Part shown: piece after piece, positions 4,739 to 26,531 of the stretch | Position numbering within the stretch: the first letter of the stretch is position 1 | Layout: every line of letters starts with the position of its first letter | Source of the DNA: Bacteroidota bacterium | Lineage (GTDB): Bacteria > Bacteroidota > Bacteroidia > JABDFU01 | Direction: 5' to 3' | DNA: 64,000 nt | Assembly: GCA_013286385.1 (NCBI GenBank) | Contig: JABDFU010000004.1 | Span: 3,025-67,024 of the forward strand | Notes under the pieces: generated by a model | The model's input: the letters and a program-made list of their open reading frames with translations, nothing else | The model's database searches: none | Told to the model about the DNA's origin: nothing | Position numbers and translations under genes: made by a program

Positions 4739-6499
4739 CTATTGCACGCCAGGCTTATCCTGCAGCATCAGTTCCCGTATGTATTTTACCGGTGCGCTGC
4801 CATAGCTAAGAAATTTTTCATGAAAAGCTTTCAGGTTAAACTGATCCCCCATTTTCTTTTTAAGCTCCTCCCTGAAATCATAGATTTCGGTGAAACCTGT
4901 AAAATAGCTGCAAAGTTGCACTTGTGTGAGGGAAACCCTTCTCCATTTTCCTTCGGCTTCGGCTTTCTGCTGAAATGCCTCGCTCGTTAATAGCTTCATG
5001 GCGTCCTCCTTTTCCATTCCCAGGGCATGCACGCTATAATCCAGTATCGTATTGCAGACCGTGCGCAAATGCCATTTGTAATACATGAGCCACATCTCAG
5101 GCTCATTGTTTCCGTATCCGCTTTCAATCATCATGCGTTCTGTATAAACGGCCCAGCCCTCTACCATGGCTCCGTTTCCGAACAAAGATTTAATCAGACT
5201 GGGACTCTGGTTGCTGTAGACCAGTTGAGTGTAATGACCGGGAATGGCTTCGTGTATGCACAAAATCTGAAGAATGTAATTGTTATACTCCCTCAGGTAA
5301 CTTTCGGCCCTATCAGGAGCCCAACCGGATAAAGAACCTACGTTGTAATAGGTATTGCCGTTTTTGTCATACGGACCCGGCGCATTAATAGATGCACCGG
5401 CAACTCCCGCCATATAAGCAGGCTCTTTGCGTATAACCAGAGGTTTGGTCGAGTCTATGAAAATCAGGTTTTTCTTTTTAATAAAGTCAACCAGAACAGG
5501 AATCTGCCGCTCAATAGTCACCTGAAAGGAGTCGGCCTTAACATGCTGAAGTGCAATTTTTTCAAGAACACTGCGGGTAATTTCAAGATCCTCAGCAGGC
5601 ATTTTTTCGCTGCCCATGTATTTTTTCCAGAGCGACTTGCTGATTCTGGCCATTTCGGCATGCAACTCATCCTTTCGCTTAAGGGCGCGTTCATAGATTT
5701 CTTCGGAAGTGAAACGGGATTGAATGTCAAATCTGAATTTTGCCTCAAAAAGATCCTTGCCCAGGTGAAAGCTTCTGGGAGTGTCATTTTTCATCGTTTT
5801 CAGCCATTCGGCATAGTCCCTGACCGCCTTTGCCGAATTAACAATACTCGTTTCAAACTCTTTTTTAACGGATTCGCTAAGGCCCGAAATTTTTACCGAA
5901 TCCAGCAGGTCTTTTTCCAGAACCGAAACCGAATTCAGGTTTTGCTCAATTCCCAGCTGGGTATGTTCTTTGGTAGGATTTTTCAGGTATTTCCTGGCCG
6001 ATTCATAATAAGCAGGTGTACTTTTCAGTCGCCCGTATATTCCCATCAAACGTACATCGAGTTTCGCATAATTGCCATTGAGCAATTCGGCAATGCCGCT
6101 TACTACATTGTAATCCGAAGGGTTCCATTCAAAAGACTTATAGGAAGTGTTGTTCCAGATCAATTCATTCAGCTGATTCTCGATCAGGTAATAATCGGTT
6201 TTATTGTTGGAGCTGAGCTTCTGAAGATCATAGGATTTTAACGAATCCAGATTGGCTTTTGCAAATTCATTTTCAAGGGCCCTGCTGGCCTCCGAAGGAA
6301 CAATAAGAATACTGTCGTAATTGTGATAGCCCTGACTGGCAGCCCAAACGGGATATACTTTCCAAAGTTTTTCGATAAAACTGTTTTTATACGAATCGAA
6401 GTGTTGATCACTATTGTCGTTTTGTTGATTGCTATTCTTATTCTGACCGCAGGAAGCGAACAGTACAGATGCTATTGCGAGTAAGGCTATTCTTTTCAT
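4739..6499 (-). CDS. DUF885-family lipoprotein
   Basis: Lipobox FASC; HEAIPGHY and EGWAVYTE motifs; C-terminal FNLKAFHEKFL. Confidence 0.9.
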   Translation of the reverse strand: MKRIALLAIASVLFASCGQNKNSNQQNDNSDQHFDSYKNSFIEKLWKVYPVWAASQGYHNYDSILIVPSEASRALENEFAKANLDSLKSYDLQKLSSNNKTDYYLIENQLNELIWNNTSYKSFEWNPSDYNVVSGIAELLNGNYAKLDVRLMGIYGRLKSTPAYYESARKYLKNPTKEHTQLGIEQNLNSVSVLEKDLLDSVKISGLSESVKKEFETSIVNSAKAVRDYAEWLKTMKNDTPRSFHLGKDLFEAKFRFDIQSRFTSEEIYERALKRKDELHAEMARISKSLWKKYMGSEKMPAEDLEITRSVLEKIALQHVKADSFQVTIERQIPVLVDFIKKKNLIFIDSTKPLVIRKEPAYMAGVAGASINAPGPYDKNGNTYYNVGSLSGWAPDRAESYLREYNNYILQILCIHEAIPGHYTQLVYSNQSPSLIKSLFGNGAMVEGWAVYTERMMIESGYGNNEPEMWLMYYKWHLRTVCNTILDYSVHALGMEKEDAMKLLTSEAFQQKAEAEGKWRRVSLTQVQLCSYFTGFTEIYDFREELKKKMGDQFNLKAFHEKFLSYGSAPVKYIRELMLQDKPGVQ

Positions 6500-6730
6500 A
6501 ATTGTTGTTTATTTGCGGGCAAATGTACCGTATTTCTTCTTAAAATAAGTCTATTTGCCGCATTTAGCTTATCACTTCTTCAATAACAATCCGTTTAAAT
6601 TAAATTTCTAAAAAGACCAGCATTAGCCTGGAAGGTGAGAAAATCCTGTTGATTTTTTGCGTAAATTTGTTGAGCAAAATCAGATTCATTGAGTTTGAAT
6701 TTAATCTTTCTTTCGTTTGAACTTCTCCCG

Positions 6731-6929
6731 GTCGAGTAAGCAAGGGCATTTCAGCCCGAGCTTCTCACAGAACCGTACGTGACAGTTGCCCGTCATACGG
6801 CTCTTGTTATCAAAATCCCTATTTGAATCCAGATTGCCAGTTATAGAACAGTGTCGGGGTTTGGGCTTGTATTGCACGTAATTTTCTGTATGCTCCGCCT
6901 TTGTTGATTTTGTATTTATCCATAATCCA
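6731..6929 (-). mobile_element. 5'-truncated group II intron: last 36 codons of the maturase plus domains V and VI
   Basis: Minus strand 6803-6770 = GAGCCGTATGACGGGCAACTGTCACGTACGGTTC (34-nt domain V), then a DVI stem ending ACTCGAC at 6731. The upstream frame WIMDKYK...PTLFYNWQSGFK* (stop 6821-6819) resembles a maturase C-terminus. Confidence 0.9.
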
Positions 6930-7205
6930 TGGAGTGGTCTTGTATTATTGTATCATTTGTTGCCCAGCGAATGACTGTACAGCCGTATTTATTATTTGGT
7001 AAATCTTTGAATGTGATTGTAGCCATTGGTGGATTAAACCATCCCGTGTTTTCATCCCACCCTTTATTTATTAATTGCCAACAATTTTTTCTTTTATTGC
7101 CATACTCCTACCAAATATTCCGACAACAGCAATAATGAGGATGAGAGCCGCAACAATCGGATGTTTTTTTACCGTAGTCCATATTGTTGTAAATACGTTC
7201 CTCAT
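6930..7205 (-). pseudogene. Probable frameshifted and truncated membrane-anchored protein gene
   Basis: ATG at 7205 abuts the previous stop. MRNVFTTIW...IVAALILIIAVVGIFG...EKIVGN* stops just after an A-run; a protein-like frame (WQLINKGWDENTGWFNPP...) continues up to the intron junction. Confidence 0.4.
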
Positions 7206-7961
7206 CTATTTCGTTCCGAGCTTATCATTAATGGATTTCAAATAATCAGAATTTATAAATCTTTTATCGCTCGCAACTGTTTTATTATAATAGTCCAAAG
7301 CTCTTGAATAATCCCCTGTTTCAAAATACAGATGGGAATATAGATTATTTAATTGCGGAAAGTCAGGCAAAATCTTGGCAGCCTTGTCTAAAATGCTGAA
7401 CGCTGCATCCACAAAGGCTTTATTCTTGGTCTGCATAAATTTATCTATGTATGGATTCGTAGCATCCAGTGAAAGAAAGACAAAATCAGAATCAGAGCGT
7501 GATTTATACAAGGTAAATGCCCTATTATACAATGGAATGGCTTCATCATCCCGATTTTGTTTTGCCATTATATCCCCGAAGCCCCAATAAATCTTATAAT
7601 TCGTTGTGTCAAACAGATATGCCTGATTAAACCGTTTGCTTGCGATTTCATTGTTACCTGAACGGAAAAACGTCCAAGCCTTAAATGCAAAAATATTGCC
7701 TGCCTGCACGCTATCGCACTTGCAATCCTTCAGTACATTTCTTATAAAAACATCATCGCTTAATTTTAGCCTTGCACTTTCATTCTTATGATTGTACAGT
7801 GGGGAAAGATTATGCTGCTGCTTTTCCACTCTTCTGTTATTTTCAATATCAGCCTGTGTTTTAACATTGTTGATATATCCAGTATGCAAGTTAATATCCG
7901 AAGGGTTTCTGCTCGCAATGCAACCAGCCAAACAAATAATAAAACCAAAATACTTTTTCAT
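7206..7961 (-). CDS. Tetratricopeptide-repeat lipoprotein
   Basis: Lipobox LAGC; TPR-like helices (ASKRFNQAYLFD, GDYSRALDYYNK). Confidence 0.75.
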   Translation of the reverse strand: MKKYFGFIICLAGCIASRNPSDINLHTGYINNVKTQADIENNRRVEKQQHNLSPLYNHKNESARLKLSDDVFIRNVLKDCKCDSVQAGNIFAFKAWTFFRSGNNEIASKRFNQAYLFDTTNYKIYWGFGDIMAKQNRDDEAIPLYNRAFTLYKSRSDSDFVFLSLDATNPYIDKFMQTKNKAFVDAAFSILDKAAKILPDFPQLNNLYSHLYFETGDYSRALDYYNKTVASDKRFINSDYLKSINDKLGTK

Positions 7962-7977
7962 TCCTGATGCCCTACAT

Positions 7978-9396
7978 TTAAAACTTTATTCCTACCTCAA
8001 TTTTAAAACCATAATCGCTGGGATAAGTCTGTGAGCTTAAAAGTTGTCCGAATACACTTAATCCCACAACAAGTGCGTTATCAGATTTCGGAACAAAATA
8101 AATCCCTGTGTTTCCGTACATCCCAATTATTAAGTTTGAAGTGGAATTTCCATATTCATAGGTAATCAATTCGCTGCCAATTGGCACTTGTACCCGAAAA
8201 TTGAACATAAAATAATCGCCAATCCTTTTAAATACATTTACTCCAGGCTTGACATAATATATGCTTTCTGTTTGCCCACTGCTGACGGAATTTAACTGAA
8301 TGTATTCAAAGGAGACCACTGCAGGGAAAATCCATTCATCATCAGCCTTTTTTGCCCATTTGTAAAAGGACAAAGAATAGCCTGTTGCGTTGACACCGTA
8401 CGCATAAGAAAATGTAAGTAAATATTCTTTCGGAGTTTTCTTCTCTTTTATGTATGAATTTTCCTGTGATAAATTCGGGGGACGATTATTCTGTTTGTTT
8501 ACAGAGGAAGTGTCATGGGAAATTGGTGTAGCAGGTCTGAACGAATAATATTTGTATAAGGAATCTCTTTCACTTGCTTTGCTGATGGCATAAGATGAAA
8601 CGTCTGAAATAGGTATGGTGTGAATTTTCCCAAATACTTCATACGAAATGCTGTCTGCAGTTACCTCGGCAATGATTATACTGTTGTCAAAGGATTTTCC
8701 TGTGGACTTTAATACAATGTCATCCTCTGATTTAGAATCCTTTTCTTTATTTCCCGATTTTGCGTAGGCATCAGATACATTCTGAAAATGTATGATTCCG
8801 TTATTTGCTAATTCACTGCCATTCATCAGGGAGGAAGCGGAATCTCGATACTGCCGTGCCAACTTAAATTTTGACTTGTTTTTGTAATACACTTCCATGT
8901 CCTGATAGCTGGCTGCTATTCCCTGCTTGTCCCCGACTTCTTTCATTAATTGTAATGCCTTTTTAAGCGATTCCAAGGCTTCAGGATATTTGTATTGGTC
9001 AATGTAAACACCAGCAATATTAATCAGGCATATTCCTGTTTCTTTTTTATCCCCGACTTCCTGTATGGTGTTTAATGCGGAGATATAACTTTCTAAGGCT
9101 CTGGATAGTTCAGATTTATGGATGTAAACACTACCGATGCTTACGTAACAGGCGTATGTTTCCTTTTTAACTCCTCTTTTTTCACTGATTTTCAGAGCTT
9201 CATTATAATAGTCCAAGGCATCCCAATATTTTTCCTTGGCAAAATAGGTATCAGCAATGTTACGTGCGATTTTATATCTGTTGGTATCTGAAACGGATGT
9301 GTTTTTGTAAACAGTCAGCAGCGAATCCATTTTCTTTTTCTGACCGAAAAGAAATGAGCAGTAAAAAATAAATAAAAATGATAGCAGTGGTTTCAT
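7978..9396 (-). CDS. Secreted protein with N-terminal TPR array and C-terminal outer-membrane beta-barrel-like domain
   Basis: Signal peptide; TPR motifs (ALDYYNEALKI, ALESYISAL, ALESLKKAL); C-terminal amphipathic strands ending GFKIEVGIKF. Confidence 0.7.
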   Translation of the reverse strand: MKPLLSFLFIFYCSFLFGQKKKMDSLLTVYKNTSVSDTNRYKIARNIADTYFAKEKYWDALDYYNEALKISEKRGVKKETYACYVSIGSVYIHKSELSRALESYISALNTIQEVGDKKETGICLINIAGVYIDQYKYPEALESLKKALQLMKEVGDKQGIAASYQDMEVYYKNKSKFKLARQYRDSASSLMNGSELANNGIIHFQNVSDAYAKSGNKEKDSKSEDDIVLKSTGKSFDNSIIIAEVTADSISYEVFGKIHTIPISDVSSYAISKASERDSLYKYYSFRPATPISHDTSSVNKQNNRPPNLSQENSYIKEKKTPKEYLLTFSYAYGVNATGYSLSFYKWAKKADDEWIFPAVVSFEYIQLNSVSSGQTESIYYVKPGVNVFKRIGDYFMFNFRVQVPIGSELITYEYGNSTSNLIIGMYGNTGIYFVPKSDNALVVGLSVFGQLLSSQTYPSDYGFKIEVGIKF

Positions 9397-9479
9397 CTAC
9401 CGCAAGTTACAAATGTTTTTCGTCTGGAATAATCAGGTAAAATCCAGCAGTTACTTGAAAAGGATTTTTTAGAACCAAT

Positions 9480-10196
9480 CTAAAATGAAATATTTAAACT
9501 TCCAGTTTTTCCGCTCTTAATGAGCATTGACGCACTGTCAGAGTAAGCAATCTTATTAACTGTAAACTGCCATTTCAAAAACAGGCGCTTATTCGGCATT
9601 ATGTGATAAACAAAGGTTGTATCTAATAGTTTGGAATTACTGTTGAAATTTCCTCCCGCTGAAGTTAAATTATTGAAATTGGAAATCAAACTTAGGGTGC
9701 TGCCTGTTGCTTTTGAAGTGTCTTTTAAATGAATGCTCAGATAAGCTACAGGGACACAGGATATATTTGAATTAAAATAACATTCGTATCCATTGTAAGA
9801 TGCAGCTGGAGCAGGATGGATAAATACTGTTTGACCAACAAAACTGTCATTACAAGCTCTAAAAATGTAATTATTATTTGCTAAGCTGGCAATTGTGCTG
9901 AAGGGCTGAATAAATTCAAAAATACCTTGGTTGTAGCTGCTGGCAGGCATATAGCCATCGTTTGACACTCCGTTGGTAGTGGCAGAATCAGTAAGAAGAT
10001 AAAATATTGTGGAGCCGCAAATGGGCACTTTTGTTACGGAATCACTCACTACCCCTTGAAACATTGCTATTGGCGGAGAATTATGTGCTGCTGTTCCCAA
10101 TGGCTGATTATTGGAGGTATCCTTAGAACAGTCAACAAGGAAAATGGAAATGGCAGAAATAATCAAAATGCTTATCGGAATTCTGCCTTTCTGCAT
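9480..10196 (-). CDS. Hypothetical lipoprotein
   Basis: MQKGRIPISILIISAISIFLVD-C lipobox-like signal; GVVSDSVTKVPI resembles a carboxypeptidase-regulatory-like strand; promoter-like TATCTTAG just upstream. Confidence 0.7.
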   Translation of the reverse strand: MQKGRIPISILIISAISIFLVDCSKDTSNNQPLGTAAHNSPPIAMFQGVVSDSVTKVPICGSTIFYLLTDSATTNGVSNDGYMPASSYNQGIFEFIQPFSTIASLANNNYIFRACNDSFVGQTVFIHPAPAASYNGYECYFNSNISCVPVAYLSIHLKDTSKATGSTLSLISNFNNLTSAGGNFNSNSKLLDTTFVYHIMPNKRLFLKWQFTVNKIAYSDSASMLIKSGKTGSLNISF

Positions 10197-10388
10197 ACAG
10201 CTAAGATATGTCAATAAAAATTCAGAATCCAGCTATTACTGTACACTCCTGCTCCGAAATCCATCCGCCAAATTCCTCATTCCCTTAACCTGAGCCGAGT
10301 TATGCTCCCGAAAAAGTACAATCCTCCCAAATTCCTGCCCCCCTCCCAAATTTCCCCCTCTTTTCCTCCATACTTTCCCAAAAAATCC

Positions 10389-10430
10389 TATTTTTGCTGT
10401 CCCGACCTCAAAATCGGACGTTCTTTGACC
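10389..10430 (+). promoter_or_regulatory. Bacteroidota -7 promoter element, hairpin and boxA-like antitermination motif (also in copies 2 and 3)
   Basis: TATTTTTG (TAnnTTTG, same as before tRNA-Asp at 49857-49864), GTCC(C)GA-CCTCAAAA-TCGGAC stem-loop, GTTCTTTGAC. Confidence 0.6.
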
Positions 10431-10647
10431 CAAACTTTCTTTTAATTTCTTTCAAACCTGCACCCCCATCAGCACAAAACTGGAGTGCTATAGCTGGAGT
10501 GCTGGAGTGCTATAGTCATGTAGCCAAATGCTGCCAAATGTGCCATTTTGCACGAAAACACAGCAACCAGGCTCCGAAGGATTTGAAGAAATCACAGTAC
10601 CAAGAACCTCTGAACGCATTGATTAACAGCAAGTTCAGACAAAATAA

Positions 10648-10690
10648 GCGGAAGTAGCTCAGTTGGTAGAGCGTAACCTTGCCAAGGTTA
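10648..10690 (+). pseudogene. tRNA-Gly(GCC) 5' fragment (43 nt, through the anticodon stem)
   Basis: GCGGAAGTAGCTCAGTTGGTAGAGCGTAACCTTGCCAAGGTTA with D arm and TAACC/GGTTA anticodon stem; no T arm follows. Confidence 0.9.
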
Positions 10691-10848
10691 GTCTCTGGAA
10701 AAGTGGCGTGCTGGGTCAAAGCCAATAAAATCAATAAGTTTACTGAATTAGGGTTAAGGTCGGAAAGGACTGGAGTGCTGTGCTGGCGTGCTGGCGGAGT
10801 GCTGAGGGGGCAGGAGTGGAGTGCTGAGTAATTTAAACAAACTCATAG

Positions 10849-11235
10849 TCATCTTTCGCCATTACCACAAACGGGGTGAGTGGTATGCGGTTCGCTGTTA
10901 ATCTCAACATTTTTGACTGCCTCACCCTCAAGTGCTATTGTTTCTCTTAGAAATGTGCTTTCAGTAATGGAATAGTTCAAAGCAAAATAATATTTCGCAC
11001 CCCAAGAATAATAAACTTTCTTGAATTCCTTTGCCTTCCCATTCCTGACAATGATGTACCGTTCAATCTTTTTGTTTCCTTCAATTGATTTTTCAATCGT
11101 AATTCCTGCAGGGTATTTTTTTGCTAAAGTGTTCAGGTATATGGAGTCTCTGGTGTTTTGCGGTGATGTCTGCCCAAACCCAGCCACCGAAAACCCTACA
11201 AACGCCAATAATATCAGTAGATGCGTAGTTTTCAA
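10849..11235 (-). CDS. Small secreted protein homologous to the C-terminal domain of the 24300-26531 protein
   Basis: Likely TTG start giving signal peptide MKTTHLLILLAFVGFSVAGFG; KYPAGITIEK...WG..YF...ITE motif. Confidence 0.7.
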   Translation of the reverse strand: MKTTHLLILLAFVGFSVAGFGQTSPQNTRDSIYLNTLAKKYPAGITIEKSIEGNKKIERYIIVRNGKAKEFKKVYYSWGAKYYFALNYSITESTFLRETIALEGEAVKNVEINSEPHTTHPVCGNGER

Positions 11236-11249
11236 TATGTAAATCCGTT

Positions 11250-11918
11250 TCAACATCCAAAGAAGATTGGCATCACGTAGTTTATTGAAACGATTAGCAA
11301 TGCAATAATAATTACGCCAGCTATAATTCTGCTTAGAATGATTGAGCACTTGCGAAATATTTTAGTAATCAATAGGCTCAGCAAAATCCAAACGATATAA
11401 AAGATAACGATTAAAATTCCCAAGACAAGTTCCATTGCGGTGTCTTTGGAGTTAAAAGACCTTCCAGTATGGCGATTTAGGACAAGTATCTTTTCTGGTT
11501 GCTCGTTTGTAAAGGCAATCCTAAGTTCAATCTGTTGGTTTGAGTTTATAATGTTCTGTGAAATTGGTTCTATAACCTCAATGTTTCTACTGAAATGTTC
11601 AAGCCCAAAATCTATTGTATCTCTTGTGGACACAAATTTTGCCCTGATTGATTTAATAAATATTTCATTCTTACAGCGAAGTCCGTGGTATTTGTCAAAA
11701 TAATCTCTGTCATTGGTGCTGTCGTGCTGAAGTCCTACTATTGAAAAGTTTCCATGCGAGGGATAATATGAACACCTGAGCATATATCCACAATACCTGT
11801 TAAATCCGTTTGAATTGTTGCTGTTATCCTGATATGTCGTACAAAGAGGAGCAGAAAAATACATAAAAGCTCCAATAATAATAATTAAGGCAACTAATCC
11901 GAGAAGTAGTTTTTTCAT
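11250..11918 (-). CDS. Hypothetical membrane protein (N-terminal anchor, two C-terminal TM helices)
   Basis: MKKLLLGLVALIIIIGAF start; two hydrophobic C-terminal segments. Confidence 0.65.
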   Translation of the reverse strand: MKKLLLGLVALIIIIGAFMYFSAPLCTTYQDNSNNSNGFNRYCGYMLRCSYYPSHGNFSIVGLQHDSTNDRDYFDKYHGLRCKNEIFIKSIRAKFVSTRDTIDFGLEHFSRNIEVIEPISQNIINSNQQIELRIAFTNEQPEKILVLNRHTGRSFNSKDTAMELVLGILIVIFYIVWILLSLLITKIFRKCSIILSRIIAGVIIIALLIVSINYVMPIFFGC

Positions 11919-12069
11919 TAGCCCTAAAGTTAAACCAATTTCAGCGTATTTCAATTGGAATGGAACTGCATCTCATTCCGTGACCGAAAGCAACTCCTGG
12001 CTCAAATCTGGCAGGAAAACGCTGGTAATATTCTTAGACAAGGGGTGTTTGTCGGAGGAAGGGCAGTCA

Positions 12070-13065
12070 CTACTTCTCTTTCCGCTTTATTTCCGCCTCA
12101 ATCAGAGCACGGTCTTTGTTCAACTCTGCTTTCAGTTCCTTTTCGCTTGGCAGATAAAGTTTATACCGAGAAGAAAACATTTGTTTGTTTTCCTTCAATA
12201 CGGAATACTTAATCACGGACTCATTCTGCTCCGAACACAATATTAATCCTATGGTTGGATTATCGCCTGGCTGTTTAAATTTCTCCTCATACATCCGCAC
12301 GTACATATCCATTTGTCCAACGTCTTGATGAGCAAGCTTGCCGACTTTTAAATCAATCAGAACAAAGCATTTCAGGATATAGTTGTAGAATACCAGGTCA
12401 ATGTAATAATGTTCAGTGTCCGCATCAATGTGTTGCTGACGGCTTACAAAGGAAAAGCCTTTGCCCAGCTCCAGCAGGAAGTGTTGTATGTTATTGAGCA
12501 GTGCCTGTTCCAGTTCGCTTTCATATAAATGCTCGCTTGGTTTTATCTGTAGGAATTCTAACACATACGGCTCTTTTATAAAATCGGTAATGTGCGGAGC
12601 AAGAGCCTTCGTTTTTTGTTTGGCTTCTTTTTGAACAGCTTTTTTGTTTTTACTGCTTAAAATTCGTTCGTAATAAAAACTGTTTATCTGCCTTTCTAAG
12701 CCACGTACACCCCAGTTCTGTTCCACGGCTTCTTTAATGTAGTAAGCCCGTGCGTCAGGATTTTCAACACGCATCAGCAATTTATATTGCGACCAGGATA
12801 ATTCTCTCCACACCGTGGAGAGAATTTGAGCTTCCGAATCAGATTTACGGATGCGTGCATTTTTTCCTCTGGTTAAAACAGTCAAATTATCAACGGCTTC
12901 CTTGTTATTGGAAACTCTCCACACTGTAGAGAGAATTGGGAAGGTGTTGTAAAATTGTCGCATATTCCAAAGGCTCTGCACACTATAACCGCCTTTAAAT
13001 TCCTTGTTCAATCTGTCTGATAAGTCCTGCAATACTGCCTTCCCGTATTCTGCCTTCTTTTTGCC
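12070..13065 (-). pseudogene. yhcG: YhcG/DUF1016 PD-(D/E)xK nuclease-domain protein, N-terminus missing
   Basis: LSWSQYKLL, FIKEPYVLEFL, FLLELGKGFSF, IDLVFYN, IDLK, GQMDMYV, PTIGLILC motifs. Homology starts at GKKKAEYGKAVLQDLS with no start codon upstream before an in-frame stop. Confidence 0.8.
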
Positions 13066-13263
13066 AATATTTACTCTCTGGTACGGGAATTCTTTGCATT
13101 TTACCGAGAATTGATTTTTTAAGTCCTAGAGCCTCCAAGCCCAAATCCTTCAGAGGCTCCAGACCCCTTCAGTTGCTTGAATTGGGTTTGGGTATCTTTG
13201 GGGATTTTGTTGGTAGGAGGAATTGGGGATTTTACCTAAATTAGCATATAGGCAGCCTGCACC

Positions 13264-15279
13264 ATGAAAAGGATTTTACTTTCTGTATTTTTGTTTGTTT
13301 CGTGTATGACTGATGCACAATGGGTGCAGACGAGTGGCCCAAGTGGATTGGATGGAACAGCTTACTGCCTTCTCATTGATGGAAGTAATATTTTTGTAGG
13401 AACCCTAAATGGTGGCGTTTTTCTTTCCTCAAATAACGGAAACAGTTGGAATGGTGTCAATTCGGGAATAACAAGTCTTTACGTTAATGCTTTGGCTGTA
13501 AAAGGTGATACTTTGTTTGCAGCCACTGAAGGTGGCGGGGTTTTTATGTCCACCAATAATGGTGTCAAATGGTTGTCCTCAAATTCAGGCTTAACAAATC
13601 CTAATGTATCTGCATTGTTGGTTGACGGGAATAATATTTTTGCTGGAACTATCAATAGTGGTGTTTTTCTCTCAACAAATAACGGTTCAAGCTGGTCTTC
13701 TATCGGATTGGATACGCTTCAAGTCAATGCTATTGCGGTGAATGGTAACAATTTATTTGTGGCTACGGATGAAGTATCTAAAAGGACAGGAGTGTTCAAA
13801 TCAAGCGATAATGGTATAACCTGGATAAATATTGGATTTACCAACACCTCTGTTAACACCCTAGCTATAAGTGGAAGTAGCTTATTTGCAGGAACTGATT
13901 CAGGAGTTTTTGTTTCTACGAATAATGGCTCAAATTGGAATTCGGTTGGGTTAGATACCCTAATAATATGGGATTTAACATTTAACGGTAGTAATTTATT
14001 TGCAGGAACAAAATACGGGGCTTTCTTATCCACAAATAATGGGACGAACTGGACATCTGTTGGTGGTGGACTTCCACATTCATATATTTTTTCAATAGTG
14101 AATAATGGGGCAAATCTATTTGCAGGCGGTGATGAAGGAGTTTTTCAATCAACCAATGGTGGCTTCAACTGGATTCCAACAAATTCAGAACCTGCTAATA
14201 CCACTGTCTTTTCTTTTGCATCTATCGGGAGCAATATATTTGCGGGGGCAGATTATGGCGGGCTTTTTCTCTCCACTGACAATGGCACGAATTGGTTATC
14301 TGCTGGATTAGATACTTTGGTAAGTGGTTCCTTGACAGTTAATGGAAGCACCCTGTTTGCTGGAACAAGTAATGGTGTTTATTATTCTACAAACAATGGT
14401 ACTGCTTGGTTATCCGCTGGATTTGATACTTTGGGGGTTTCTGTTTCAAACATTGGCGATAATCTTTTTGTTGGAACTGATTATGGCATTTATTTGTCAA
14501 CTAATAATGGCTTGAATTGGACTGGAATAAATTCAGGATTACCAATGGGCGGAGCATTTCTTTTCCCAGCATTTGGTGATAGCCTATTCGCAACGGTTGC
14601 TAACGGTCTTTATCTCACTACTAACAATGGTACAAATTGGAACATCATTACAGGTAATCTCTGGGCAAATGGTCAAATTAGTGCAATGGCGATAATAGAT
14701 AGTAATTTGTTTGTTGGGATTATAGGATTAATTGGTGGTGTTTTTCGTACCTCGGATAAGGGTTCGTCCTGGATAGAAATGAACTCAGGACGTTATGGAC
14801 ATGATATTATTAATTCTTTTGCTGTGAGCGGAATAAATTTGTTTGCTGGTACTGAAGCTGGTGGAGTTTTTGTAACGACAAACTATGGTTCCAATTGGAC
14901 AGCTATCAATTCAGGTCTTTTTAATCTGAATGTTACAAAATTGGGAATTAACAGTGGCAATATATTCGCAGGAACAAATGGTGATGGCATATTCATTGCA
15001 CCTGTTTCTTCCTTTTTAACTGGAATTACAGAAATAAAATCCCAGCCTTCCCAATTTACTATCTTCCCAAATCCAACCAATTCCTCCTTCACAATCAAAT
15101 CCTCTTCCACCGAAAAACAGCTCCTTCAGGTATTTGATATTACAGGCAAATTAATTTTCACGGAAACAATTTTCGGAACGGCTACCATTGATGCCAACAA
15201 TTTCGCCCAGGGAGTCTACAATCTTTCCGTTTCAAGCGAACACGGAAATGAGAACAAAAAGTTGGTTATAGTCAGGTAA
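13264..15279 (+). CDS. T9SS type-A cargo, Asp-box/BNR beta-propeller protein
   Basis: Signal peptide; many SxNNGxxW Asp-box repeats; CTD IFPNPTN...FDITGKL...QGVYNL...KKLVIVR. Confidence 0.9.
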   Translation: MKRILLSVFLFVSCMTDAQWVQTSGPSGLDGTAYCLLIDGSNIFVGTLNGGVFLSSNNGNSWNGVNSGITSLYVNALAVKGDTLFAATEGGGVFMSTNNGVKWLSSNSGLTNPNVSALLVDGNNIFAGTINSGVFLSTNNGSSWSSIGLDTLQVNAIAVNGNNLFVATDEVSKRTGVFKSSDNGITWINIGFTNTSVNTLAISGSSLFAGTDSGVFVSTNNGSNWNSVGLDTLIIWDLTFNGSNLFAGTKYGAFLSTNNGTNWTSVGGGLPHSYIFSIVNNGANLFAGGDEGVFQSTNGGFNWIPTNSEPANTTVFSFASIGSNIFAGADYGGLFLSTDNGTNWLSAGLDTLVSGSLTVNGSTLFAGTSNGVYYSTNNGTAWLSAGFDTLGVSVSNIGDNLFVGTDYGIYLSTNNGLNWTGINSGLPMGGAFLFPAFGDSLFATVANGLYLTTNNGTNWNIITGNLWANGQISAMAIIDSNLFVGIIGLIGGVFRTSDKGSSWIEMNSGRYGHDIINSFAVSGINLFAGTEAGGVFVTTNYGSNWTAINSGLFNLNVTKLGINSGNIFAGTNGDGIFIAPVSSFLTGITEIKSQPSQFTIFPNPTNSSFTIKSSSTEKQLLQVFDITGKLIFTETIFGTATIDANNFAQGVYNLSVSSEHGNENKKLVIVR

Positions 15280-15579
15280 AATCCTGAAAATTTCCCGTCT
15301 CAAACTCATTTCCTCAATTTTTTCAATGTTTCCCACCGTCATTTCCCAAAAAATCCTATTTTTGCTGTCCCGACCTCAAAATCGGACGTTCTTTGACCCC
15401 AATTTCTTTCAAACCCACAGCCCGTCAGCACAAAACTGGAGTGCTATAGCTGGAGTGCTATAGCCATGCTGCCAAATGCTGCGAAATGTGCCATTTTGCA
15501 CAAAAACACAGCACTACAGAAACGGTAGAAATTGAAGAAATCACAGTACCAATAACCTCTGAACTGATTGAATAGCGGA
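15274..15579 (+). repeat. Repeat module copy 2 (diverged, tRNA part lost)
   Basis: 57-bp core at 15342-15398; CTGGAGTGCT at 15436 and 15450; TTGAAGAAATCACAGTACCAA...CCTCTGAAC shared; ends in ATAGCGGA, possibly the first tRNA bases. Confidence 0.9.
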
Positions 15580-15726
15580 CTATGCTGCCGTTTTGTGACG
15601 AGCTTTCTTTTTCCTATTAAGTTTATATTCTTTAATCAATTCGCTGATTTCCTTTGCTTCCTTATCTGTCAGACGTGTTGGTTTTACAACGAGGTCTGGT
15701 TCAGTTGATTTTCTTTGCAGTCTCAT
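15580..15726 (-). CDS. Small basic protein (48 aa), putative partner of the upstream GNAT-like gene
   Basis: Manual translation MRLQRKSTEPDLVVKPTRLTDKEAKEISELIKEYKLNRKKKARHKTAA*; starts 4 nt after the upstream stop. Confidence 0.6.
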   Translation of the reverse strand: MRLQRKSTEPDLVVKPTRLTDKEAKEISELIKEYKLNRKKKARHKTAA

Positions 15727-15730
15727 AGCT

Positions 15731-16240
15731 TTACTTTTTAAAATATTGGTTGATTAATTTTAGTGATGTTTTATCGCTGATAACCATTCTTTGTCCACCT
15801 AATGACTCTGCTCCAAGTGCCTTTTGATAATAACCGATGAGTGCTGTCTTGGCTTCAAATACAACAAAACCTTCCAAGCCAGCTTCCAATGAACGCTTAC
15901 AGGCATAGGCAAACAAATTTCCTCCCACTCCTTCATATAGTTTCCCACTTCCACGATTAAATTTCGCATTTTCAACAACGTTAATAAACACAAAACCATT
16001 ATCAAACCTAAAAGAGATAAGCCCCTGAATTATAGTCGGGTTGTCCTTAATGGTCATCTTATACACTTCATTTCTTGCGACAGCTAATTCACTTTGCCAG
16101 TTGAAAATCCAATCCTTTCTTTTTATTTCTTTATTTGAAACCTTTTGGAACTCGATTACAAGGATATCCCCCGAAATAGTATTAACTATTGAGTTTGTTA
16201 ACCTATCAATTTCTATATCAATACCTGCTTTTCTTGCCAT
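15731..16240 (-). CDS. GNAT-fold-like hypothetical protein
   Basis: Acetyl-CoA-binding-like segment YEGVGGNLFAYAC...G.EGFV.FEAKT.LI.YY...LGA; own promoter TAAATTAG at 16257-16250. Confidence 0.6.
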   Translation of the reverse strand: MARKAGIDIEIDRLTNSIVNTISGDILVIEFQKVSNKEIKRKDWIFNWQSELAVARNEVYKMTIKDNPTIIQGLISFRFDNGFVFINVVENAKFNRGSGKLYEGVGGNLFAYACKRSLEAGLEGFVVFEAKTALIGYYQKALGAESLGGQRMVISDKTSLKLINQYFKK

Positions 16241-16288
16241 TTTGCAAGGCTAATTTACGCAAAATAAGCCGTTTTCCCCAGTAGTTTC

Positions 16289-16306
16289 CGTCCGTATATA
16301 CGGACG
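16289..16306. promoter_or_regulatory. Perfect 18-bp palindrome, possible operator
   Basis: CGTCCGTATATACGGACG, upstream of the GNAT-like gene promoter. Confidence 0.45.
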
Positions 16307-16465
16307 TTTTGTTTCAATTCCACGTAACCGACCGTAGTCTGAAGAGAGCCTGCCATTCCGTTTCAGGCACTTCAGTCTTTTTTTGTCTTTTGAAGGTTTT
16401 GGAATGTGGGCTGAAAACCAATTTTCAGCACTCCTGTTTCAAAAGAAACAGTAACAAGGCTCAAT

Positions 16466-16878
16466 TTAAAGAAGTCCTGTTCCCAATCCAATTGCAAGAA
16501 GTGTAATCATCACTGTGACTATCCATTGAACAAAGTCAATTGTGATTTTTTTTAGGAGCTTACTGCCTATGTATGCTCCTGCAAACGCAGAGCCAATTGC
16601 AGCCAATAGGATTTTTAAATTGTCCTGAATATTGATGTTGGACAAACGACTGAAATAAACGGAAAGTCTTGTGAGGTCAACTACACAGGCAATGAATATT
16701 CCTGTTGCGATGAAGCTTTCCTTCGTCAATCCGCAACGGAGAAGAAACATACTTCTCAATGCTCCTTGATTCCCTGATAATCCGCCAAAAAAACCACTGA
16801 TGAGACCACCAGCATATAATTTATTTTCGTCAAACTGAATTTTCTTTAAAGCAGGAACAGTTTCAAATAATGCAAACA
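16466..16878 (-). pseudogene. TauE/SafE (TSUP) transporter, C-terminal half only
   Basis: GGLISGFFGGLSGNQGALRS and FIATG motifs; cut off at the IS-like end at 16879. Confidence 0.75.
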
Positions 16879-16955
16879 CATTAGTGTCCGGTTAAAATAG
16901 TAATAAGTTCTTTGAAAATATTGATAGACAAGGGTTGCAGAGAGTTTTAGCGGTC
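16879..16955 (+). mobile_element. Probable IS terminal remnant (IS4-family-like inverted repeat), no transposase
   Basis: CATTAGTGTCCGGTTAAAATA begins exactly where the TauE gene is cut; resembles IS4-family ends as I recall them (unverified). Confidence 0.45.
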
Positions 16956-17129
16956 AGGAGTGGAGATAATTTTATAAAGTCAGCCAAATTTGAAATAAGT
17001 ATATCTGAAACAGATAAGCCAAAGAAATTATTCAGATGTGTCGCTATTCTTGAAGATAAAGACGGAAAAATCTACAGGAGCAAAATCCACACTGATTCTT
17101 CTTTGGAAAAGAAAATTAAAGTGTTTTGA
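16956..17129 (+). pseudogene. 3' fragment of an unknown gene
   Basis: Open frame ...DNFIKSAKFEISISE...KIKVF* whose stop abuts the next ATG; 5' part replaced by the IS-like sequence. Confidence 0.35.
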
Positions 17130-17291
17130 ATGAAACCCAACGCCCTCTGGCATTCCAAAAACAAAATGCCCAAGAACGCCACTACCCAGCAGCGGATTAA
17201 ATGGCATCTTGCTCATCAGAGGAACTGTGGCTGCAGGGAGATTCCTGAGAAATTGAAAGAGGAGATTAAAAAACGGGAAACAAAGAATTGA
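17130..17291 (+). CDS. Small His/Cys-containing protein (53 aa)
   Basis: Manual translation MKPNALWHSKNKMPKNATTQQRIKWHLAHQRNCGCREIPEKLKEEIKKRETKN*; tightly coupled to both neighbours. Confidence 0.7.
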   Translation: MKPNALWHSKNKMPKNATTQQRIKWHLAHQRNCGCREIPEKLKEEIKKRETKN

Positions 17292-17947
17292 AATTGCAGG
17301 TAAATATGACGTACAGGCTTAGAACAGTATCCGTGGTAAAATTCTTAATTTTCGGAATTGGTGGCTCAATAATTTTAATGGCTGGTACTACCGCTTTTGG
17401 TTATCATCATTTCAGTAGAACTGTAGTTGAATGTCTTACGATGATTGCTTTTGCTTCAGCAATTCTTCTCTCTCACTTCCTTGCCTCAGCCGAGATGGAC
17501 GTTACAATCACTGAAACATCTGTCAGTTGGGATAACAAGACAGTTTTATTTGATGATATTATTGGATATTCTGTAAACAGGAGCATCTTTATAACAGCGT
17601 TTGCAATAAAACTCAAATCAAACAAGGTTGTAAGCATTAACGCCTTTGATTTTGGAAAATTCAAGGAAACCTTTCGGGAATTTACAGATGAATTAATAAG
17701 AGCAATTAAAGCAAAATCAATTAATGCAGAAAAAATGATTTATAGTGAAATGTATAATAGGAATTTGAAGTTCCGCATTAAATGGCATTACTATGTAGAC
17801 ATCCCAATTGTTATCGTTGTTAACTTGGGTTTTCTCTATTTTAAAATAATAAAAAATGTTCCTCTTGAATGGTACAAGCTATTCTTTTTGAACGTTTTAT
17901 TTTTGAGCACTTTTAAATATTTGCAGGTACGGAAGAAGAAGGAATAG
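17288..17947 (+). CDS. Hypothetical 4-TM membrane protein
   Basis: Two N-terminal and two C-terminal hydrophobic helices around a soluble PH-like segment. Confidence 0.65.
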   Translation: MKLQVNMTYRLRTVSVVKFLIFGIGGSIILMAGTTAFGYHHFSRTVVECLTMIAFASAILLSHFLASAEMDVTITETSVSWDNKTVLFDDIIGYSVNRSIFITAFAIKLKSNKVVSINAFDFGKFKETFREFTDELIRAIKAKSINAEKMIYSEMYNRNLKFRIKWHYYVDIPIVIVVNLGFLYFKIIKNVPLEWYKLFFLNVLFLSTFKYLQVRKKKE

Positions 17948-17955
17948 AATTATTG

Positions 17956-18379
17956 AGGTAAAATCCTGCCGACAAAACACACATTCCCTTAACCTGAGCC
18001 GAGTTATGCTCCCGAACATGGTACAATCCACCCCAAATCCCATCCCCTCCCAACTTTTCCCCCATTTTCCTCCATACTTTCCCAAAAAATCCTATTTTTG
18101 CTGTCCCGACCTCAAAATCGGACGTTCTTTGACCATCATTTTCTTCTTTTTTTGAGCACCGCTGTAGTGCTATAGCTGGAGTGCTGTAGTGCTATAGCAA
18201 TGCTGCCAAATGTGCCCAAATGTGCCCTTTTGCACGAAAACACAGCAACCAGGCTCCGAAGGATTTGAAGAAATCACAGTACCAAGAACCTCTGAACGCA
18301 TTGATTAACAGCAAGTTCAGACAAAATAAGCGGAAGTAGCTCAGTTGGTAGAGCGTAACCTTGCCAAGGTTAAGGTCGG
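17956..18379 (+). repeat. Repeat module copy 3
   Basis: Aligns to copy 1 from AAATCC through the tRNA fragment; CTG(G/T)AGTGCT at 18162, 18176 and 18184. Confidence 0.95.
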
Positions 18380-18402
18380 CGGTTCAGGATTCCTCTTTGA
18401 GT
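18330..18402 (+). pseudogene. tRNA-Gly(GCC) pseudogene (intact 5' 49 nt, broken T and acceptor stems)
   Basis: tRNA-like through AAGGTCG; the following GCGGTTCAGGATTCCTCTTTGAG cannot pair properly with GCGGAAG or form a T stem. Confidence 0.8.
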
Positions 18403-18528
18403 CCGGCTGACTTTACAATATCAAAAGAATCCTCCCCCTTCTACCCTCTTCAATATTACAGAAAGTGATTTTACAAAATCAATCCCACTTATTTACTACT
18501 TTTGGGCCTCTTAAAAAAAACAAAAAAC

Positions 18529-22283
<3,755 letters not shown>

Positions 22284-24299: not shown

Positions 24300-26531
24300 T
24301 TATTGAGCTTCTGAATTAAATTCAGCTTCGGTTATTGGCACATCATCTTTGAAATAGAAAATCTGCCCCCAGGCCCATGTACTCTTTCTGTAAATTGCGG
24401 CATTGCTCCCCTTCACTACATAAAGCTTTACAATTTTACAATTTCCCTCCTGAGACTTTTCCTCGGTAACGCCCTGAGGATATTTAGACACGAGGGCATT
24501 GACGTATTGCTTTTTTACCTCCGGATCAGCATCCTTTGCAGGAGCAACAATGGCTGTTGATTTGGTGGCAGGAGTAACCTTAGCCGGGACGACTACAGCA
24601 GGTTTTGTTGCAGCAACAGTTTTTTCTTTGGCCAAGAGATCATTGATAACGGTAATTTTATCCTTTGGGTATTTTTCATCAGGCATAAGCGTCAGAGCTT
24701 CCTGATAAATCGGCTTCGCCGATTTGTATTGTTTTAACAAAAACTGCTTATCAGCATTCTCAATCAAACCTTTGTATTTCTCTTTTTTAGCCATTTCAGC
24801 GTCTCTTGCTGCCTTATCAGCGGCAAGTTTATCCGCCATTTCTTTGTCTTTCGCTGCTTTATCAGCGGCAGCCTGCTCTTCTATTTTTTTTATCTCAGCA
24901 AGCCTGTCTTTCGGTAGTTGTTCGGCTGGTTTTATGCTTAGCGCCTCATTATATCCGGCTTTTGCAGACGGATAGTCTTTTGAATCAAAGAATTTATTTG
25001 CCTTGGTAATAGCCAAAACATATTTGTCGTTAATTTCTTTTTCCCTGGCGGCCTTTTCTGCTTCTGTAGCATTCTTATTTGCAATATCGGTAAGGATTTT
25101 TTCTATTTCAACCAACTTGTTCCTGGGATACGCTTCCTCCGTTTTTATCCCTGCAGCCTCATTGTAGGCTGCTTTTGCTACGAGGTAATCCTTTGCAGCA
25201 AAGCCTTTGTCACCTTTCACAATGGCTGCATTGTATTTATCATTGAGTTCTTTTTCTTTTGCGGCCTTATCAGCTGCAAGTTTATCTGCGGCCGTTTTAT
25301 CGGCAGCAGCTTTTGCTGCTTTATCTGCCGCAAGTTTATCCGCAGCTGTTTTATCCGCAGCAGCCTTTTCTGCTGCAAGTTTATCCGCGGCGGCCTTATC
25401 TGCTGCAAGTTTATCTGCGGCTGCTTTATCGGCAGCAGCTTTTTCAGCTGCAAGTTTATCCGCAGCCGCTTTATCGGCAGCAGCCTTTTCTGCCGCAAGT
25501 TTGTCCGCAGCGGCCTTATCAGCTGCAAGTTTATCTGCGGCCATTTTATCGGCAGCAGCCTTTTCTGCCGCAAGTTTATCCGCGGCGGCCTTATCAGCTG
25601 CAGCTTTTGCTGCTTTCTCTGCCGCAAGTTTGTCCGCAGCGGCCTTATCAGCTGCAAGTTTATCTGCGGCCATTTTATCGGCAGCAGCCTTTTCTGCCGC
25701 AAGTTTATCCGCGGCGGCCTTATCAGCTGCAGCTTTTGCTGCTTTCTCTGCCGCAAGTTTGTCCGCAGCCACTTTATCTGCTGCTGCTTTATCGGCAGCA
25801 GCCTTTTCTGCTGCAAGTTTATCCGCGGCGACCTTATCTGCTGCTGCTTTTGCTGCTTTCTCTGCCGCAAGTTTGTCCGCAGCCGCTTTATCTGCTGCTG
25901 CTTTGTCGGCAGCAGCTTTTGCTGCAGCGGCCTGACTTGCTGCATTCGCATCCGCAGTAGCCTTGTTTTTGTCCTCCTCCAACTTCTTCTTGTCCTCTTC
26001 TTCTGCCTTCTTCTGAACCACTGATAATTTTTCCAGTTTACTTCTCATAGACTGGGTATAACTCTCATCATAATTGAAATCGTTCTCTGAACTCTGATAC
26101 GAAAACTTGGCAATGGGTTGACTCAGAATCGCATTTAATTCATTAACATCGACCCCTTTGGGTATTTCAAATAGGACAATTTCAGAAAGATCAACTCCTC
26201 CGAAGCCTTTTTTTCCTCTCGAATCAGGAACATTTTGGGTATTAAAACTGAAAATTTTGGTAATGTGATTCGCCTTGGTAACAGTAATAGTATAATTCGC
26301 ATTGGGATCCAGAACGAAGTCAAATTTTCCATTACTGGTGGTAATGGTTTGTTTAACCTGAACGCCGTCTTTTATTAAGCTGACAACCGCGCCGTCCATT
26401 TTTTTGCCTCCTTTGGTAACCCTTCCGCTAACCGGAAAGTTCCAGGTCTGGGTTTGGGCCATGACCTGAAATCCCAATAGTAAAATCAGGGGTAATAGAA
26501 TTACCTTACGTATTTGTATCGCTTTTATCAA
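24300..26531 (-). CDS. Secreted TolA-like helical protein: carboxypeptidase-regulatory-like domain, AA(D/E)Kx repeats, TPR-like repeats, conserved C-terminal domain
   Basis: Signal peptide; over 200 aa of AADKL/AAEKA repeats; KDYxxAKxxYxEA repeats. Confidence 0.8.
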   Translation of the reverse strand: MIKAIQIRKVILLPLILLLGFQVMAQTQTWNFPVSGRVTKGGKKMDGAVVSLIKDGVQVKQTITTSNGKFDFVLDPNANYTITVTKANHITKIFSFNTQNVPDSRGKKGFGGVDLSEIVLFEIPKGVDVNELNAILSQPIAKFSYQSSENDFNYDESYTQSMRSKLEKLSVVQKKAEEEDKKKLEEDKNKATADANAASQAAAAKAAADKAAADKAAADKLAAEKAAKAAADKVAADKLAAEKAAADKAAADKVAADKLAAEKAAKAAADKAAADKLAAEKAAADKMAADKLAADKAAADKLAAEKAAKAAADKAAADKLAAEKAAADKMAADKLAADKAAADKLAAEKAAADKAAADKLAAEKAAADKAAADKLAADKAAADKLAAEKAAADKTAADKLAADKAAKAAADKTAADKLAADKAAKEKELNDKYNAAIVKGDKGFAAKDYLVAKAAYNEAAGIKTEEAYPRNKLVEIEKILTDIANKNATEAEKAAREKEINDKYVLAITKANKFFDSKDYPSAKAGYNEALSIKPAEQLPKDRLAEIKKIEEQAAADKAAKDKEMADKLAADKAARDAEMAKKEKYKGLIENADKQFLLKQYKSAKPIYQEALTLMPDEKYPKDKITVINDLLAKEKTVAATKPAVVVPAKVTPATKSTAIVAPAKDADPEVKKQYVNALVSKYPQGVTEEKSQEGNCKIVKLYVVKGSNAAIYRKSTWAWGQIFYFKDDVPITEAEFNSEAQ
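25258..25930 (-). repeat. Coding 15-bp minisatellite containing an exact 129-bp tandem duplication
   Basis: 25489-25617 equals 25618-25746, plus a partial third copy to 25769. Confidence 0.9.

Follow-up and report, generated by a model that had tools for sequence, protein, structure and literature searches.

Repeated modules leading into the front of tRNA-Gly(GCC) in an inserted low-GC block of a Bacteroidota genome, most likely a decayed island array

Introduction

How does a bacterial chromosome come to hold several copies of the front of one tRNA gene, preceded by the same few hundred base pairs of non-coding DNA and separated from one another by unrelated genes? The question is raised by a 64,000-nucleotide stretch (here called the window) of contig C4 of the Bacteroidota genome G000, a metagenome-assembled genome (MAG) of 2.37 Mb in 94 contigs, rated 66% complete and with a mean GC content of 44.6%. 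Three direct copies of a non-coding module lie within a low-GC block of this window, and two of them run into the 5' part of a tRNA-Gly(GCC) gene. An earlier note on this DNA, made from the letters alone, had proposed repeated trans-mobilised insertion into an integron-like array. We tentatively favour another origin, to which we give somewhat less than an even chance: the block would be a pile of two or three decayed islands upstream of tRNA-Gly, each bringing its own promoter and tRNA front.

Results

Three module copies lie in an inserted low-GC block

Repeat search of the window and alignment agree on three direct module copies, at 10257–10690, about 15280–15574 and 17956–18385. The longest run identical in all three is a 57-bp core (10374–10430 = 15342–15398 = 18078–18134), and copies 1 and 3 share an identical run of 145 bp (10546–10690 = 18228–18372) that ends in the front of tRNA-Gly(GCC), in agreement with what the earlier note had read from the letters. 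The module plan comprises a distal block, the core, a variable stretch, a repeat block made of GGAGTGCT(ATAG) and GCCAAATG repeats, a leader and the tRNA-Gly(GCC) front; the distal block and the tRNA front are present in copies 1 and 3 only. The core of module 1 contains TATTTTTG at 10389–10396 and an inverted repeat at 10399–10419, and its GGAGTGCT repeats are located at 10482, 10496 and 10504. The inverted repeat has a 7+8+6 layout (GTCCCGA, 8 nt, TCGGAC); a different inverted repeat occupies the same place in a fourth copy, on contig C55, described below. Coordinates of all features are collected in Table 1.

The copies are embedded in a block of about 11.9 kb that is absent from relatives. 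The order comprises 6 genomes including this one, among them G004 (97% complete) and G002, G003 and G005 (56–72% complete). In G004 and G001, the DUF885 and prolyl oligopeptidase genes that flank the block are divergent, adjacent and about 100–150 bp apart; these are both of the congeners (2/2) in which the oligopeptidase locus is assembled, the protein not having been found in G002, G003 and G005. Judged by eye, the match to the empty site is regained near 6534 at the left end and near 18418 at the right end; there, some 32 bp of unassigned sequence separate the tRNA remnant of copy 3 from the upstream region of the prolyl oligopeptidase gene. GC content of the block is 35–41% compared with 42–54% in the flanks, also below the genome mean, which bears out the earlier description of unrelated, AT-rich genes between the copies. 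Absence from the same site in relatives is hence combined with foreign composition, as in islands of the Islander type.

ARAGORN detected tRNA-Asp alone in the window and no tRNA-Gly. In Rfam, the tRNA part of copy 3 scores 33 bits and that of copy 1 24.3 bits, with a gathering score of 29, and neither fragment forms a complete cloverleaf with the acceptor 3' strand. Copy 2 has no tRNA part and stops about 70 bp before the expected tRNA start. Downstream of the tRNA part of copy 1, the post-break segment carries a second cluster of the repeat, of the form G(G/C)(A/C)GTGCT, at 10772, 10785, 10796 and 10818.

A fourth copy leads into the intact tRNA-Gly(GCC) gene

BLAST of the MAG identified a fourth module copy on C55, where about 210–270 bp lead into an intact tRNA-Gly(GCC), the only one among the 24 tRNAs found by ARAGORN in the assembly, with a terminator hairpin 3' of it. 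The consensus of the Bacteroidota -7 promoter box is TAnnTTTG, and TATTTTTG in the core is the only match to it in the 250 bp that precede the C55 tRNA. Between the upstream contig end and this gene lie 6.4 kb with a GC content of 35–40%, which contain orphan genes and a BNR/T9SS protein (T9SS, type IX secretion system). A 295-bp segment (95.6% identical) is common to this region and island 2, the DNA between window copies 2 and 3, and is collinear with the module in both. The C55 locus has the look of a sister island. The earlier note had named as support copies beside an integrase at an intact tRNA-Gly: the copy at the intact gene exists, whereas no integrase adjoins it.

Congeners show how the surroundings of C55 look elsewhere. 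In G003, the genes found downstream of the C55 tRNA (DUF1697, a 162-aa open reading frame (ORF) and glutaminyl cyclase) are directly preceded by another gene; there is no tRNA or module at this DUF1697/glutaminyl-cyclase locus, and ARAGORN finds no tRNA on the 9.4-kb contig. This is weak support, because it is a single comparison in a genus with poor synteny. The tRNA-Gly(GCC) of G004 is identical to the C55 gene over 77 bp, and its first 47 bases are 100% identical to the copy-1 fragment. Upstream it has a promoter-like box, TACATTTG, about 36 nt away, and no module. Therefore, the module is not the ancestral upstream region of this tRNA in the genus. No synteny connects the tRNA-Gly locus of G004 with that of C55.

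The module recurs in other contexts

Among 40 relatives, only the tRNA part was matched, apart from a 39-bp piece in G005, and the module was found in 2/6 genomes of the order, this genome included. Pattern scans placed it in only two further locations, contig C7 of G005 and the metagenome contig L018: genome contigs gave one record, which agrees with G005 C7 in length and match and is counted as that locus, in metagenome contigs the first pattern gave 0 matches and the second retrieved the G005 contig and L018, viral contigs gave 0 matches to three patterns, and plasmid and phage collections gave no match. On L018, a 2.8-kb contig, positions 607–1085 match copy 1 at 82% identity, spanning the core (57/57), three GGAGTGCT repeats, tRNA positions 1–43 (43/43), the 61-nt insert, the GGTTAAGGTCGG remnant corresponding to tRNA 40–51 and the second cluster of the 8-bp repeat. 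The left neighbour is unrelated to that of the window; on the right, a homologue of the window's 166-aa ORF follows after three additional small genes, and the L018 flanks have no match in the six genomes of the genus. The truncated copy-1 unit, found in L018 with other neighbours, is therefore a conserved entity in different contexts. A 90-bp module remnant in G005 (contig C7, locus L014) provides a third context, after a ParE-like ORF. That ORF, at about 2280–2780, reads through into the remnant, and its C-terminus is encoded by module sequence. As to the proposal that a module with a tRNA front moves with foreign DNA, the insertion absent in two congeners, its low GC content and L018 speak for it, whereas an integrase-linked copy was not found.

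The repeats are specific to these loci. GGAGTGCTATAG occurs 6 times in the genome compared with 0.3 expected, all on C4 and C55. Clusters of at least three degenerate 8-bp repeats are confined to C55, copy 1 and the DNA immediately beyond copy 1; the count misses copy 3, whose repeats are GTAGTGCT variants. In copy 1 and in L018, clusters lie on both sides of the tRNA part.

Module copies are mosaics around an invariant core

The core is 57/57 identical in copies 1–3 and L018, whereas adjoining blocks are 26–89% identical. In the variable stretch, copy 3 is identical to C55 at 25/25 positions and to copy 1 at only 12/47. In contrast, the last 81 bp of the leader are 81/81 identical between copies 1 and 3, and 66–74% identical to copy 2 and C55. 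Which copies are most alike thus changes at the core and a second time at the repeat block. The fixed ends, terminal inverted repeats and target-site duplication of a transposon, insertion sequence or miniature inverted-repeat transposable element were not seen, boundaries differing in every pairwise comparison, and the repeat search of the window revealed no inverted repeat that pairs the module ends.

A proposed origin from decayed islands upstream of tRNA-Gly

In the reading that we favour, each island would lie upstream of a tRNA-Gly(GCC) sequence and end in its own tRNA-proximal module, in which a Bacteroidota-type -7 box, predicted about 250 nt upstream, is accompanied by an inverted repeat where transcription is predicted to begin, by clusters of an 8-bp repeat, by a leader and by the front of the tRNA. 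Were the element active, the module would be the arm of the attachment site, with the repeats as putative binding sites. A tyrosine integrase would insert the element at tRNA-Gly, such that the resident promoter and 5' part are displaced and the gene is rebuilt from island DNA, and repeated integration would leave one module per island. In the window, the recombinase would have been lost or be located elsewhere, redundant tRNA parts would have decayed, cargo would have been truncated, and homologous recombination between modules would have produced the mosaics. The working copy of this arrangement might be C55, where the module would drive the only intact tRNA-Gly(GCC). Islands on the 5' side of tRNA-Gly are suggested because low-GC cargo is always found upstream of modules that share one direction and point into the tRNA front, because a sister arrangement exists at the intact gene on C55, because the module is absent from the tRNA-Gly of a congener, because a conserved unit recurs in other contexts, and because a locus-specific repeat is present on both sides of the tRNA part.

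Several observations weigh against this origin. No tRNA was identified at the empty site, either by ARAGORN in 20 kb of G004 or in the intergenic region of about 150 bp in G004 and G001, implying that the array does not sit at a tRNA attachment site (attB). A 3' fragment of tRNA-Gly was not found on C4, nor did ARAGORN find an intact tRNA closing the array. The tRNA remnants look scarred instead of cleanly cut, copy 1 consisting of positions 1–43, a 61-nt insert flanked by GGTTA, and positions 40–51. Copies 1 and 3 have G50 in common, where the C55 gene has C50; opposite G64, G50 would mispair in the T stem, which gives the window fragments the look of pseudogene remnants. The repeat cluster downstream of the tRNA part of copy 1 parallels the upstream one in order and spacing and may thus be a partial duplicate of the module, not a second arm. 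Module boundaries vary from one pair of copies to another, the order of the copies rests on assembly with uneven depth along the locus, and comparative depth is thin, with 6 genomes in the order and a MAG that is 66% complete.

The search for a recombinase likewise counts against it. No recombinase domain was found in the block ORFs scanned between 7.2 and 18 kb (10 ORFs with Pfam, a subset of them with PHROGs and NCBIfam), in line with the earlier note, which had recognised no integrase in the region; 6.5–6.7 kb holds no ORF of at least 50 aa, and the ORFs of 50–68 aa at 6.7–7.2 kb were left out of the scan. Searches with Pfam, PHROGs and NCBIfam gave no recombinase either among the neighbours on L018 (2.8 kb) and C55, where 6.4 kb separate the tRNA from the upstream contig end, and the G005 contig likewise lacks an integrase. 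The four PF00589 matches of the genome are located on contigs C91, C14, C7 and C66, none near a module, and the same holds for those in G004 and G005. On C66, positions 9913–11231 hold a tRNA-Lys(TTT) and, after it, a tyrosine integrase gene truncated at the contig end; here an ordinary island begins on the 3' side of its tRNA, with no relation to the modules.

Alternative origins of the array

Best surviving among the alternatives, and in our view unlikely, is duplication and decay without site-specific integration. A unit of module and tRNA-Gly with a long leader would have been copied several times by homologous or illegitimate recombination within a plastic region acquired horizontally, redundant tRNA copies would then have decayed, and the repeats would have a regulatory function in the promoter region of the tRNA. 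Switches of identity at identical stretches, namely the 57-bp core and the repeat block, are what homologous exchange predicts. The internal insert in the tRNA remnant and G50 in both copies, the fragments in island 2 copied from the C55 locus, the lack of a recombinase near any copy and the resemblance of the downstream repeat cluster to a partial module likewise agree with it. However, the cargo between copies is entirely different, which excludes a simple segmental duplication, and the presence of the truncated copy-1 unit in another organism with other flanks requires some mobility. Congeners, moreover, have neither the module at tRNA-Gly nor the block as a whole.

An assembly artefact, which we consider improbable, would leave the copies real and make the three-module array a chimera that joins co-existing haplotypes through tangled repeats, with fewer modules per molecule. 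Read evidence consists of assembled contigs of one public DNA run, X1, probably the source of the genome (96% of sampled words present), and the results given here hold among the 8 of 21 X1 records listed. X1 contigs end inside every module (10403/10480, 15371/15430 and 17995/18349), and all junctions between unique and module sequence are spanned by X1 contigs. Mean depth is 259.9 on the left flank (13.6-kb record), 179.5 in island 1, 104.3 to 77.9 in island 2 and 89.5 on the right flank; a 206-bp piece common to copies 1 and 3 has a depth of 282.6, which fits the sum of 179.5 and about 100. The three-fold fall from left to right indicates either mixed haplotypes at the locus or uneven amplification. 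Since contigs break in every module and depth differs three-fold, the copies and junctions are supported and their order in one molecule is not: island order rests on the MAG assembler, and the placement of the outer flanks also on synteny with G004 and G001.

These breaks, the downward steps in depth and a MAG of 94 contigs at 66% completeness would fit a chimeric path. Nevertheless, an X1 contig crosses every unique/module junction, and both islands start and end in module parts and must therefore sit between modules somewhere. The outer flanks are adjacent in two congeners, supporting the contig ends, and the variable module parts are unique and short enough to be bridged by paired reads. 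Depths, being per-contig means, could reflect uneven amplification. An X1 variant contig of depth 32 carries 12 substitutions within 17136–17221, a stretch in common with C55. Together with the depth steps from 260 to 90, it suggests that the sample contains more than one haplotype or paralogue. Two apparent X1 joints, 13186 to 18124 and 13188 to 16961, were dismissed as repeat noise, their sides measuring only 30–33 letters.

Still less probable is the integron-like platform, akin to the trans-mobilised capture proposed in the earlier note. A trans-acting recombinase would build arrays of promoter-bearing cassettes, each made of cargo and a promoter/tRNA-Gly front module, with the 57-bp core as putative crossover site and the GGAGTGCT clusters as putative accessory binding sites, forming a Bacteroidota counterpart of integrons. 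As in integrons, unrelated genes are separated by a repeated non-coding site with an inverted repeat, and a promoter would be located at the repeated site. The core remains 100% identical in copies 1–3 and L018 amid diverged blocks, the 7+8+6 inverted repeat is replaced by a different one at the same place on C55, affinities between copies switch at the core, and the G005 remnant begins exactly at the repeat. Yet switches at identical stretches are also expected from homologous recombination, no recombinase gene is linked to any copy, the array occurs in one genome only, and a cassette with the same boundaries in two contexts was not found. Integron cassettes are co-oriented, mostly promoterless and each ends in a folded attC, whereas the block genes lie on both strands, several being fragmentary, and the module folds no better than shuffled sequences. 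The repeated unit is much longer than attC and contains tRNA sequence. An IntI-type integrase with adjacent attI and Pc would be expected, whereas no recombinase domain was detected in the scanned block ORFs. Genes on both strands, fragments and boundaries that differ from copy to copy speak against the capture that the earlier note had envisaged; only the invariant 57-bp core with its inverted repeat keeps the integron-like reading alive.

A role of the module as a structured non-coding RNA, or as a regulatory leader serving neighbouring genes, is very improbable: the -7-like box and the hairpin at the predicted 5' end are conserved, with a compensatory hairpin replacement on C55, but in folding energy the sequence does not surpass its shuffled versions (C55 leader plus tRNA, z = -1.8; four sub-regions, z between -0.1 and +0.5), tRNA is the sole Rfam family that matches the module at E up to 1, and the first genes downstream of modules 1 and 2 are encoded on the other strand.

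Comparison with known systems

Islands of the favoured kind are on record. Table 1 of the Islander paper lists a displaced 5' fragment of the tRNA gene (tDNA) for 159 of 3919 islands, and its tandem arrays comprise 125 with at least two islands and 4 with at least three (PMC4383910). Our reading of the block as decayed islands is supported by these documented 5'-fragment islands and arrays; conversely, they make "undescribed system", as the earlier note had ranked the locus, too strong a term. The Islander criteria are an intact tDNA at one end of the island and a same-orientation cognate end fragment at its other end on one replicon, a tyrosine integrase gene inside, and a tDNA as attB. Here, the 5' fragments are in direct orientation, no intact tRNA-Gly is present on C4 and the intact gene is on C55; no PF00589 match was obtained in the 10 ORFs scanned (7.2–18 kb); and the empty site in G004 and G001 is not a tRNA gene. 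The block resembles 5'-fragment islands in having foreign DNA upstream of a tRNA sequence, direct 5' fragments and islands in a row, and in that promoter and 5' part have to come from the element. It differs by the lack of an integrase in or near the copies, of a closing intact tRNA and of a tRNA at the empty site, by a repeated unit of about 300–430 bp, far above the usual identity block, and by scarred tRNA remnants. A review of tRNA gene fragments left by mobile elements gives examples of partial tRNA copies that lie beside a complete gene across an island and are described as attR sites (PMC9897764). Like ours, such fragments are half-recognised by tRNA finders and made by insertion of mobile DNA; ours are 5' parts with about 380 bp of upstream sequence in common.

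The integrative elements NBU1 and CTnDOT, which use arm-type integrase sites, belong to the same phylum; short direct repeats flanking a core that overlaps a tRNA would fit sites such as theirs. In both elements, the integrase gene lies next to the site, and the NBU1 target is the 3' end of tRNA-Leu.

Taken together, the locus is most likely an array of decayed islands that lacks an integrase and belongs to a catalogued but uncommon type, found here in a poorly sampled lineage, with no new kind of system on present evidence. If this holds, the block would be a clear natural case, in an uncultured Bacteroidota lineage, of the minority of islands by which a tRNA gene is reconstructed from its front. 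A promoter would have to come with the island, and the single tRNA-Gly(GCC) of the assembly appears to depend on an island-borne control sequence about 250 nt upstream. This would bear on how island finders treat 5' fragments and integrase-less arrays, and on how the expression of an essential tRNA can become tied to mobile DNA. The 57-bp core, invariant in three copies and L018 amid diverged surroundings, is the one feature lacking an explanation.

Genes of the block and its surroundings

The cargo is typical island freight, comprising orphans, a small gene pair, a nuclease, T9SS surface proteins and gene fragments (Table 1). No reverse-transcriptase ORF accompanies the group II intron remnant at the left edge, and other intron domains were not detected in 6400–10300. 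The overlapping 166-aa and 234-aa ORFs of island 1 were considered as a broken integrase and rejected, as they encode secreted or membrane proteins. The secreted 671-aa T9SS protein is composed of about 12 diverged repeats of 111–132 nt each, and a 423-aa relative (28% identity) adjoins the C55 module.

Table 1 Features of the inserted block and its flanks (positions in the window)
Feature	Position	Strand	Remarks
DUF885 gene	4739–6499	-	Last core gene left of block
Inserted low-GC block	6534–18417		Ends approximate; absent between DUF885 and prolyl-oligopeptidase genes in G004 and G001
Group II intron domain V/VI remnant	6731–6805	-	Left edge of block; RF00029, 65.7 bits
Two TPR-repeat protein genes	7206–9396	-	251 and 472 aa; Pfam; no close homologue in G004
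Orphan, 244 aa	9480–10214	-	Lipoprotein-like N-terminus; no Pfam, PHROGs or NCBIfam family
Module 1	10257–10647	+	Distal block 10257–10373; core 10374–10430; leader to 10647
tRNA-Gly(GCC) positions 1–43	10648–10690	+	Copy 1; ends at 3' end of anticodon stem
Post-break segment	10691–10838	+	Also in L018; 61-nt insert 10691–10751, then tRNA 40–51 remnant GGTTAAGGTCGG at 10752–10763
Island 1 cargo	10849–15279		Four genes; region between modules 1 and 2
Orphans, 166 and 234 aa	Island 1, beside module 1	-	Overlapping ORFs; secreted or membrane proteins (from sequence)
YhcG/DUF1016 PD-(D/E)XK nuclease	12070–13032	-	About 50 N-terminal profile positions absent
BNR/sortilin-repeat protein, 671 aa	13264–15279	+	T9SS sorting domain; Sortilin/BNR-type Pfam matches
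Module 2	15280–15574	+	Core 15342–15398; without distal block, last ~70 bp of leader and tRNA part
Island 2 cargo	15580–17947		Region between modules 2 and 3
Gene pair, 48 and 169 aa	15580–16240	-	169-aa member without Pfam, PHROGs or NCBIfam family
TauE C-terminal fragment	16466–16879	-	Pfam
Segment in common with C55 3785–4079	16961–17255		295 bp, 95.6% identical; truncated copy of C55 gene
Membrane orphan, 219 aa	17288–17947	+	ORF
Module 3	17956–18329	+	Core 18078–18134; copy-1-like in distal part and last 145 bp, C55-like between
tRNA-Gly(GCC) positions 1–56	18330–18385	+	Copy 3; G instead of C at position 50
Prolyl oligopeptidase gene	18502–20655	+	First core gene right of block

Homologues of the 169-aa protein of island 2 are found in 57/301 genomes of the class and 43/167 genera. 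They are often multicopy, located at contig ends or interrupted by in-frame stops, and the 48-aa ORF that follows the 169-aa gene is lysine-rich; the pair looks like a mobile accessory or toxin-antitoxin-like pair. A 169-aa homologue located 0.9 kb from a tRNA in G030 was followed as a lead, which failed, the tRNA being a tRNA-Gly(CCC) in ordinary context. Outside the block, the window encodes a 743-aa protein (24300–26531, minus strand) with a CarboxypepD_reg domain followed by a long low-complexity middle region that is histone-H1/HC2-like and rich in lysine, alanine and proline.

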